Positions 41,714 through 42,023 of a DNA stretch of 64,000 nt are shown piece after piece; the stretch's first letter is position 1, and every line of letters begins with the position of its first letter. The DNA is taken from NCBI RefSeq assembly GCF_044324785.1, contig NZ_CP172127.1. One strand, 5' to 3'. The position numbers were made by a program, and so were the translations under genes. This DNA comes from Escherichia coli (GTDB lineage Bacteria; Pseudomonadota; Gammaproteobacteria; Enterobacterales; Enterobacteriaceae). The notes beneath the pieces are model-generated. The model was given only the letters and a program-made list of their open reading frames with translations. It searched no databases and was not told the origin of the DNA.

Positions 41714-41964
41714 GGCGATCACCTTTGTAGTTAGGTTAATCACCACCGCTGAGACCAATCAGATGGTGGTGAACTGTGCAGAGTTGGTCTTACCGGCTAC
41801 AAAGGAACCCGGCGCACCTTTCGGTGCCCCCACACAGCCCACCATAGAATAGGTGCGCTTTACACATAAAAAAACCGCTTATGCGGCATATGTGCCTCTG
41901 TAGTAATCCGGGAGACCAATCCCGGCACTGGATTTTGCCAGTGCCTGATTACTATGGCACAAGA

Positions 41965-42005
41965 GGAGTGCTTATATTTACCGCAAAGGTAAATATAAGC
42001 ACTCC
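41965..42005. repeat. 41-bp perfect palindrome (18-bp arms, 5-bp spacer) GGAGTGCTTATATTTACC-GCAAA-GGTAAATATAAGCACTCC
   Basis: Exact inverted repeat; the TTACC-N5-GGTAA operator-like core (41978-41992) sits at its centre. Confidence 0.9.
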
Positions 42006-42023
42006 AGTTGGTAATTACAAACC

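Follow-up and report, generated by a model that had tools for sequence, protein, structure and literature searches.

A C4 antisense RNA and an IsrK-like leader identified by sequence upstream of the second antirepressor gene of a phiV10-like prophage in Escherichia coli

The stretch at positions 41760-42023 of a 64,000-nt piece of Escherichia coli DNA (contig NZ_CP172127.1; the whole piece is referred to below as the window) separates two genes that both lie on the minus strand, and the region is therefore read from 42023 down to 41714. Upstream is a small antirepressor gene, ant, with a LexA box at its promoter; downstream is a gene for a second antirepressor, in which a BRO-N domain is fused to an Ant-like domain. 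The two neighbors had been correctly recognized in the initial annotation as a LexA-box gene and a BRO-N gene (Pfam Bro-N, E 4e-13). Our analysis indicates that, in a prophage of the phiV10/epsilon15 kind (Uetakevirus), the stretch between them very probably serves as 5' control region for the second antirepressor, with an architecture resembling that of immI in phages P1 and P7 and of the isrK region in the Salmonella prophage Gifsy-1. The element is a further member of the P1 immI/IsrK type with a lineage-specific operator and is in this sense largely ordinary. All of its RNA elements are encoded on the minus strand and precede the gene of the BRO-N antirepressor.

The first line of evidence comes from RNA families. 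The whole window was scanned against Rfam and matches were judged by the curated gathering scores. Two adjacent matches in the stretch, to the C4 antisense RNA and to IsrK, exceed these scores (Table 1), and by sequence the two RNAs belong to these families; the initial annotation had proposed a small RNA here. The covariance analysis that it had recommended gives a C4 consensus of 27 base pairs, 12 of which carry compensatory changes across 10 loci including phage P1. The RNA consists of a long closing stem and two internal hairpins, its minimum-energy fold is identical to the consensus, and its conserved 3' tail, ...CACCACCA, is the sole visible trait bearing on excision by RNase P. The IsrK-like leader comprises two hairpins, the second of which carries the pairing site a1 in its loop, followed by the pairing site b1 and an intrinsic terminator at 41868-41887. 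This terminator, CCGC-N4-GCGG plus T7 on the minus strand, had already been noted in the initial annotation; it falls inside the isrK match and was called independently by a terminator scan. The C4 and isrK pair was detected in ten related loci, and this part of the sequence matches 236 phage records, mostly of Stx phages.

All five of the consecutive strong hairpins reported initially are present in 41760-42023, some of them with coordinates shifted by 1-3 bases. The most conspicuous had been described as a perfect palindrome of 41 bp; its 18-nt arms are indeed perfect, but its loop, GCAAA, is not self-complementary, and it is therefore a perfect hairpin or inverted repeat and no strict palindrome. 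Its RNA form has a folding energy near -30 kcal/mol (z = -11 relative to dinucleotide-shuffled sequences), and it is very stable on either strand (z about -11). The full 324 nt of the minus strand fold with -144.7 kcal/mol (z = -9.1), the C4 part having a z of -4.5 and the IsrK part of -2.8. A plus-strand RNA was considered and rejected: the C4 region folds worse in that direction (z = -2.1 compared with -4.5), and every Rfam match is on the minus strand. The 41-bp repeat itself corresponds to no RNA family, the Rfam scan giving noise-level microRNA and small Cajal body RNA (scaRNA) matches only, with E above 1. A coding function was rejected as well. Annotated open reading frames (ORFs) that overlap C4, named 'ash family protein', orf34 or orf45, are conserved in neither length nor frame: in the nine relatives other than P1 that were checked, the ORF inside C4 has 8-35 codons in shifting frames, except for a 122-codon run-on in Hafnia phage yong2. 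The view that the stretch holds no convincing ORF is thus borne out, the only recurrent one being this unconserved ORF within C4.

Table 1. Features of the control region and of the genes connected with it (window coordinates; a dot marks features without strand)
Feature	Position	Strand	Description
LexA box CTGTATAAATATACAG	42303-42318	.	exact CTGT-N8-ACAG match, at promoter of small antirepressor gene
Small antirepressor Ant (SPC32H type), 85 aa	42024-42281	minus	PDB 5D50 chain E 'Anti-repressor protein', phmmer E 4e-47, near full length; phrog_450
Predicted upstream promoter P2 of the c4 operon	41992-42020	minus	-35 TTGTAA (42020-42015), 17-nt spacer, -10 TATATT (41997-41992)
41-bp inverted repeat	41965-42005	.	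perfect 18-nt arms GGAGTGCTTATATTTACC / GGTAAATATAAGCACTCC, 5-nt loop GCAAA
Predicted Rep operator ATTTACC-N5-GGTAAAT	41976-41994	.	core TTACC-N5-GGTAA at 41978-41992
Downstream promoter P1, extended -10 TGcCATAGT	41951-41959	minus	predicted start near 41944, the IsrK 5' end
IsrK-like leader/small RNA	41944-41868	minus	Rfam RF01394, 74.7 bits (gathering score 50), model positions 1-77
GGCACTG...CAGTGCC hairpin			first IsrK hairpin
CCGGGA...TCCCGG hairpin			second IsrK hairpin, site a1 exposed in loop
Site a1, TTGGTCT (RNA UUGGUCU)	41913-41919	minus	second loop of IsrK-like leader
Site b1, CTACAGAGG (RNA CUACAGAGG)	41895-41903	minus	IsrK-like leader
C4 antisense RNA	41849-41762	minus	Rfam RF01695, 78.6 bits (gathering score 45), full length 1-87
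GGCGCACC...GGTGC hairpin			first internal hairpin of C4
Site b', CCTTTGTAG (RNA CCUUUGUAG)	41797-41805	minus	second hairpin loop of C4
Site a', AGACCAA	41784-41790	minus	single strand adjacent to second C4 hairpin
Site a2, TTGGTCT (RNA UUGGUCU)	41752-41758	minus	antirepressor leader
Site b2, CTACAAAGG (RNA CUACAAAGG)	41722-41730	minus	antirepressor leader
Second antirepressor, BRO-N::Ant fusion	41021-41713	minus	Pfam Bro-N, E 4e-13; phrog_130 'anti-repressor Ant', E 4e-51
Rep (SPC32H type), presumed operator binder	12989-13573	minus	phmmer match to PDB 5D50 chain A 'Repressor', E 4e-42

The second line of evidence is the set of short pairing sites that connects the two RNAs with the antirepressor gene. 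The sites a' and b' of C4 are perfectly complementary to a2 and b2 in the antirepressor leader (7 nt for a'/a2 and 9 nt for b'/b2) and also pair with a1 and b1 in the IsrK-like leader (7 nt for a'/a1 and 9 nt, with one G-U pair, for b'/b1); the a1/b1 and a2/b2 sites were seen in addition as the direct repeats D3 and D4. These sites were compared across aligned loci from the window, phiV10, Tyrion, two Klebsiella phages, VT2-Sakai, Hafnia phage yong2, Yersinia phage vB_YpM_41, APSE-7 and P1. An explicit search for complementary runs was used in place of a matrix of RNA duplex energies, which was noisy as it included the stems. Four types of a-site and seven types of b-site occur, and within each of the ten loci a1, a' and a2 agree with one another, as do b1, b' and b2; complementary runs add up to a length of 31.4 in cognate combinations and of 20.4 in non-cognate ones. 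Between the window and phiV10, for example, GGUCU is replaced by GGCGU at all three a-sites and one base is lost at all three b-sites. At the level of sequence, then, the a and b sites are complementary and co-vary three ways. The b2 site overlaps the Shine-Dalgarno sequence AAGGTGA (41719-41725) of the BRO-N gene, whose probable start is the ATG at 41713.

The third line of evidence concerns the independence of this module from the gene upstream of it. The C-terminal domain of the BRO-N protein (residues 147-228) is homologous to the small Ant, with 42% identity over residues 149-222 (E 6e-16), and two paralogous antirepressor domains are thus encoded in tandem, the first behind a LexA box and the second behind the C4 switch. 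The Ant of SPC32H is reportedly controlled by LexA. It had been suggested that the whole stretch is a structured 3' untranslated region of the LexA-controlled ant gene, in which case all of its RNA would stem from the SOS promoter and the hairpins would stabilize the mRNA or direct its processing. Past the stop codon of ant (42024) no canonical terminator precedes the 41-bp repeat, which would make some read-through from the SOS promoter likely, and the long hairpin (18 perfect base pairs, or 21/23 when extended) could serve as a 3' stabilizer or a site for RNase III. However, the module of IsrK, C4 and antirepressor occurs without an upstream ant gene in Stx phages, APSE, the Hafnia and Yersinia phages and P1, and in the other direction epsilon15 has ant and lacks the C4/BRO-N module. 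Conserved predicted promoters precede the module, and in EC.W1-9 (L004:1958-2873) and TL-2011b (L003:1391-2479) ant is separated from the operator of the c4 module by an insert of about 1.1 kb, which contains two ORFs on the strand opposite to the module (139 and 168 aa, matching phrog_9503 and phrog_1651, both of unknown function). The occurrence of the module without ant, its own predicted promoters and this separation argue for a role of the stretch in controlling the downstream antirepressor gene from the 5' side, and we consider a 3' untranslated region of the SOS gene to be a very unlikely explanation for it. The insert itself is possibly a moron; searches of its two ORFs in EC.W1-9 against NCBIfam and PADLOC gave no matches.

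Two tandem promoters of the sigma-70 type are predicted at the start of the module, with an operator-like sequence between them. The upstream one, P2, was called by a promoter scan, and its -10 hexamer shares its last base with the start of the operator. Of 11 related loci, 10 have TTGnnn-17/18-TATnAT in this register, even some whose upstream DNA is not homologous, and P2 is thus a putative promoter. The -10 element of the downstream promoter P1 is in register with promoters of all relatives, among them those ahead of IsrK in VT2-Sakai, Hafnia phage yong2 and Yersinia phage vB_YpM_41, and with the annotated P1c4 promoter of phage P1; its -35 hexamer is TTTACA (five of six consensus matches) in nine of 11 relatives, where it begins one base after the operator.

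The operator-like center of the 41-bp repeat, which the initial annotation had singled out, proved to be one of a family of sites. The sequence TTACC-N5-GGTAA occurs 18 times in the window when at most one mismatch is allowed (10 sites being perfect), compared with 1.0 ± 0.9 times in shuffled sequences, an 18-fold enrichment, and phiV10 has 14 sites where 1.3 are expected, most of them at relative places matching those of the window. The RefSeq record of epsilon15 (NC_004775) annotates the identical ATTACC-N5-GGTAAT as 'protein_bind repressor', the annotation being a prediction by the record's annotator. The window also encodes a homologue of the SPC32H repressor Rep, presumed to bind these operators, and its gene is flanked by two pairs of motif sites (12855/12917 and 13629/13677). 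In every aligned relative of the Uetakevirus type the 15-bp core is invariant while its flanks diverge; the aligned VT2-Sakai, Hafnia yong2 and Yersinia vB_YpM_41 loci have no such core ahead of IsrK. The motif family, the Rep homologue and the Ant homologue together point to a Uetakevirus prophage with a Rep/Ant switch, in which the center of the repeat is the predicted Rep operator. The sites of the family span positions 1228-61916 of the window (for example 12855, 12917, 13629, 13677, 14014, 15960, 16022, 20286, 20304, 23431, 40934, 41978 and 42358) and lie between transcription units or at their starts, often in pairs 18-62 bp apart. The site at 42358 is a single one, with the LexA-controlled promoter of ant on one side and the tailspike gene on the other.

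Alternatively, the 41-bp repeat might act mainly as a hairpin in RNA or DNA and not as a protein site, for instance by shielding the c4 operon from SOS transcription as a terminator or attenuator, or as a cruciform. The hairpin is very stable on both strands, and the imperfect allele that is common in E. coli still folds (z about -5); a flip-flop of the loop between identical flanks, described below, also suggests that a hairpin or cruciform forms in vivo. In Tyrion and Kp4865-1, however, the hairpin is missing (z = -1.2 and -1.3) and the 15-bp core is invariant all the same, and most of the 18 members of the motif family have no extended arms. A role as an intrinsic terminator was largely rejected, since the stem is A+T-rich, is followed by UCUUGUG and not by a run of U, and receives no minus-strand call in the terminator scan, in addition to its loss in Tyrion and Kp4865-1. 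We accordingly give a primary hairpin function only a very small probability and take the center of the repeat to be a predicted operator.

Perfect arms characterize a derived allele that is rare. The right arm has the sequence GGTAAATTTACAxCGCACTCC in ZX5 and in the three chromosomes of E. coli that were examined, and it matches the left arm imperfectly there; the version in the window, in phiV10 and in one contig of IMG/VR is three bases shorter and mirrors the left arm exactly. When IMG/VR was scanned for the exact pattern of the perfect palindrome, two contigs only were returned, one of which is phiV10 itself, and among 203 complete genomes of E. coli with this region, 2 have an allele of the length of the perfect form. 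The P1 -35 hexamer TTTACA normally lies in the right arm; with the conversion of this arm into a mirror of the left one, the P1 -35 sequence was removed. The loop is inverted (TTTGC in one, GCAAA in the other) between identical flanks in the contigs L015 (2498-2538) and L016 (779-819), and likewise between the window (41983-41987) and phiV10 (L001), which suggests recurrent flip-flop of the loop. We infer that the perfect arms arose by a template switch, a 'palindromisation' of the operator/promoter region. Perfect 18-bp arms are unnecessary for the switch proposed below, and palindromisation is no evidence for a function that depends on the arms. A similar inversion affects the loop of the first IsrK hairpin in E. 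coli OkiPb01690 (L019), with CAAAAT in place of ATTTTG; this strain has a BRO pseudogene.

The rarity of the perfect form would also suit a recombination or insertion scar, either a module junction or the end of a mobile element, with no regulatory role; homology to EC.W1-9, TL-2011b and a Klebsiella phage does break at or near the repeat, at window positions 41963-42000. Against this, the core and the promoter hexamers on either side of it are conserved across the junctions, a transposase and repeated element ends are absent, and the inserted ORFs lie upstream of the core and not within it. We regard a mere scar as extremely improbable.

These features can be combined into a model for the region as the control element of the BRO-N::Ant gene. 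In the minus-strand direction the order would be the two tandem promoters with the operator between them, the a1/b1 leader with its terminator, C4, the a2/b2 sites and finally BRO-N::Ant, the terminated product of the leader being an IsrK-like small RNA. Transcripts started in the lysogen at P1, or at P2 if Rep permits, would mostly end at the IsrK terminator. C4 would be cut from the transcripts that read through, and its loops would pair with a2 and b2, thus blocking translation of the antirepressor and keeping it silent. The a1/b1 leader, or the free IsrK-like RNA, would compete for the C4 loops as an anti-antisense decoy and could in this way turn the antirepressor on. Rep bound at the operator would be expected to shut P2, because the site overlaps the -10 hexamer and the start of this promoter, and it may also modulate P1. 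Read-through from the LexA-controlled promoter is a further possible source of transcripts.

Several observations weigh against this model or leave parts of it less secure. Each functional step of the switch is proposed by analogy with P1 and Gifsy-1, and the binding of Rep to TTACC-N5-GGTAA is predicted from the distribution of the motif and the annotation in a database record. The operator, at about -48 to -34 of P1, is also compatible with activation of this promoter instead of repression. In the window and in phiV10 the P1 -35 hexamer is TAAATA (three of six consensus matches in the window), which makes the supply of C4 from the window allele uncertain. The c4-a1b1 family of Rfam (RF03163) overlaps the isrK match in the window at 38.4 bits, below its gathering score of 46.7; the VT2-Sakai homologue passes with 50.5 bits, and the bases concerned in the window are covered by the isrK model. 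Finally, the sequence from C4 to the ATG at 41713 contains no icd- or orf45-like ORF. The step of translational coupling and Rho polarity known from P1 and Gifsy-1 therefore cannot apply as described, and C4 would target the antirepressor's own ribosome-binding site directly.

It is conceivable, if rather unlikely, that the two antirepressor genes form a relay. Derepression of the ant promoter during the SOS response would yield the small Ant, which would inactivate Rep; read-through past the unterminated palindrome, together with the derepressed P2, would then produce a burst of a1/b1 decoy that titrates C4 and releases BRO-N::Ant, thereby locking in induction. If this were true, the switch would be rewired in the perfect allele, in which the -35 sequence of the constitutive promoter is destroyed: its C4 supply would hinge on transcription controlled by Rep or LexA.

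Whatever the fate of this idea, our results provide a complete, testable annotation for a region that has been left as 'hypothetical protein', 'ash family protein' or without annotation, both in phages like phiV10 and in some 500 complete genomes of E. coli. They suggest that a C4 antisense switch has been grafted onto a Rep/Ant lytic switch of the SPC32H type, giving podoviruses with two paralogous antirepressor domains, one controlled by LexA and the other by RNA. The co-varying a and b sites offer natural specificity variants for tests of antisense immunity. The understanding of such systems is unchanged by our analysis; its value lies in the annotation and in a modest hypothesis on the coupling of two controls.

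Some further features were observed in the neighborhood and elsewhere in the window. The ORF downstream of the BRO-N gene (40293-40874, minus strand, 193 aa) matches phrog_5954, of unknown function, and gave no match in NCBIfam or PADLOC; its place in phiV10 is taken by another gene of much smaller size. A perfect single motif site (40934) lies just upstream of the window gene. A tRNA gene (23035-23108, minus strand, Rfam 73.3 bits) is located early in the late-gene region, downstream of the terminase genes, and a Rep-type site lies at 23431. At 8806-8895 (minus strand) Rfam identifies sRNA-Xcc1 (RF02221, 64.8 bits, gathering score 53), a family present in some APSE phages (PMC7313666). In Yersinia phage vB_YpM_41 (L010:2746-3044) a match to the ryfA family (134.6 bits) lies about 1 kb from the IsrK/C4 module.

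The closest parallel to the control region is the immI region of P1 and P7, for which the order c4-icd-ant has been described (Citron and Schuster, 1990, as cited in PMC2864571 and PMC7313666). The order in the annotated P1 record matches that of the window: Oc4, P2c4, P1c4, a1, b1, a terminator-like hairpin, c4, a2 and b2. The two also have the RNA family RF01695 and the three-way co-variation of the pairing sites in common. They differ in that the window has no icd ORF, its b2 site covering the Shine-Dalgarno sequence of the antirepressor itself, and in the antirepressor, which is a BRO-N::SPC32H-Ant fusion in the window and Ant1/Ant2 in P1. The operators differ likewise, the window having the symmetric TTACC-N5-GGTAA, predicted to serve a Rep of the SPC32H type, whereas the C1 site of P1 is asymmetric. 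A LexA-controlled paralogous ant directly upstream is a further feature by which the window departs from P1 immI.

The isrK-orf45-anrP region of Gifsy-1 likewise has a 77-nt RNA of the IsrK family, a terminator and an antirepressor gene downstream. In Gifsy-1 the terminator is leaky, the read-through mRNA is translationally silent, and the short IsrK activates the downstream antirepressor in trans (Hershko-Shalev et al., 2016, PMC4825925); Hfq binding and trans-activation are known for the IsrK of Gifsy-1 only, and its intervening sequence is orf45, the translation of which is coupled to that of anrP (PMC4825925). In the window, by contrast, the ORF at the place of orf45 is unconserved and the sequence is a member of the C4 family. 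The setting is different as well, the module being found in a podovirus beside the tailspike gene and not in the nin/Q region of a lambdoid phage.

The three-part module of isrK, C4 and BRO-N/ant is shared with APSE and Stx phages. It is annotated in the APSE-7 record LR794147, and the trio has been discussed for APSE phages (PMC7313666), so that the module as such is already known from APSE records. No ant gene of the SPC32H type is seen upstream in the annotated loci of APSE-7 and VT2-Sakai, however, and the aligned VT2-Sakai, Hafnia yong2 and Yersinia vB_YpM_41 loci lack the window's type of operator. Both of these features link the window instead with the Rep/Ant lytic switch of the epsilon15-like Salmonella phage SPC32H (PDB 5D50), of which it encodes close Rep and Ant homologues, with a LexA box at ant, and whose repressor sites, as annotated in epsilon15, equal the window motif. 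To this kind of switch, which in epsilon15 comes without the C4/BRO-N module, the window adds a second antirepressor with an Ant-like domain, placed after the SOS-controlled one and predicted to be under the control of RNA.

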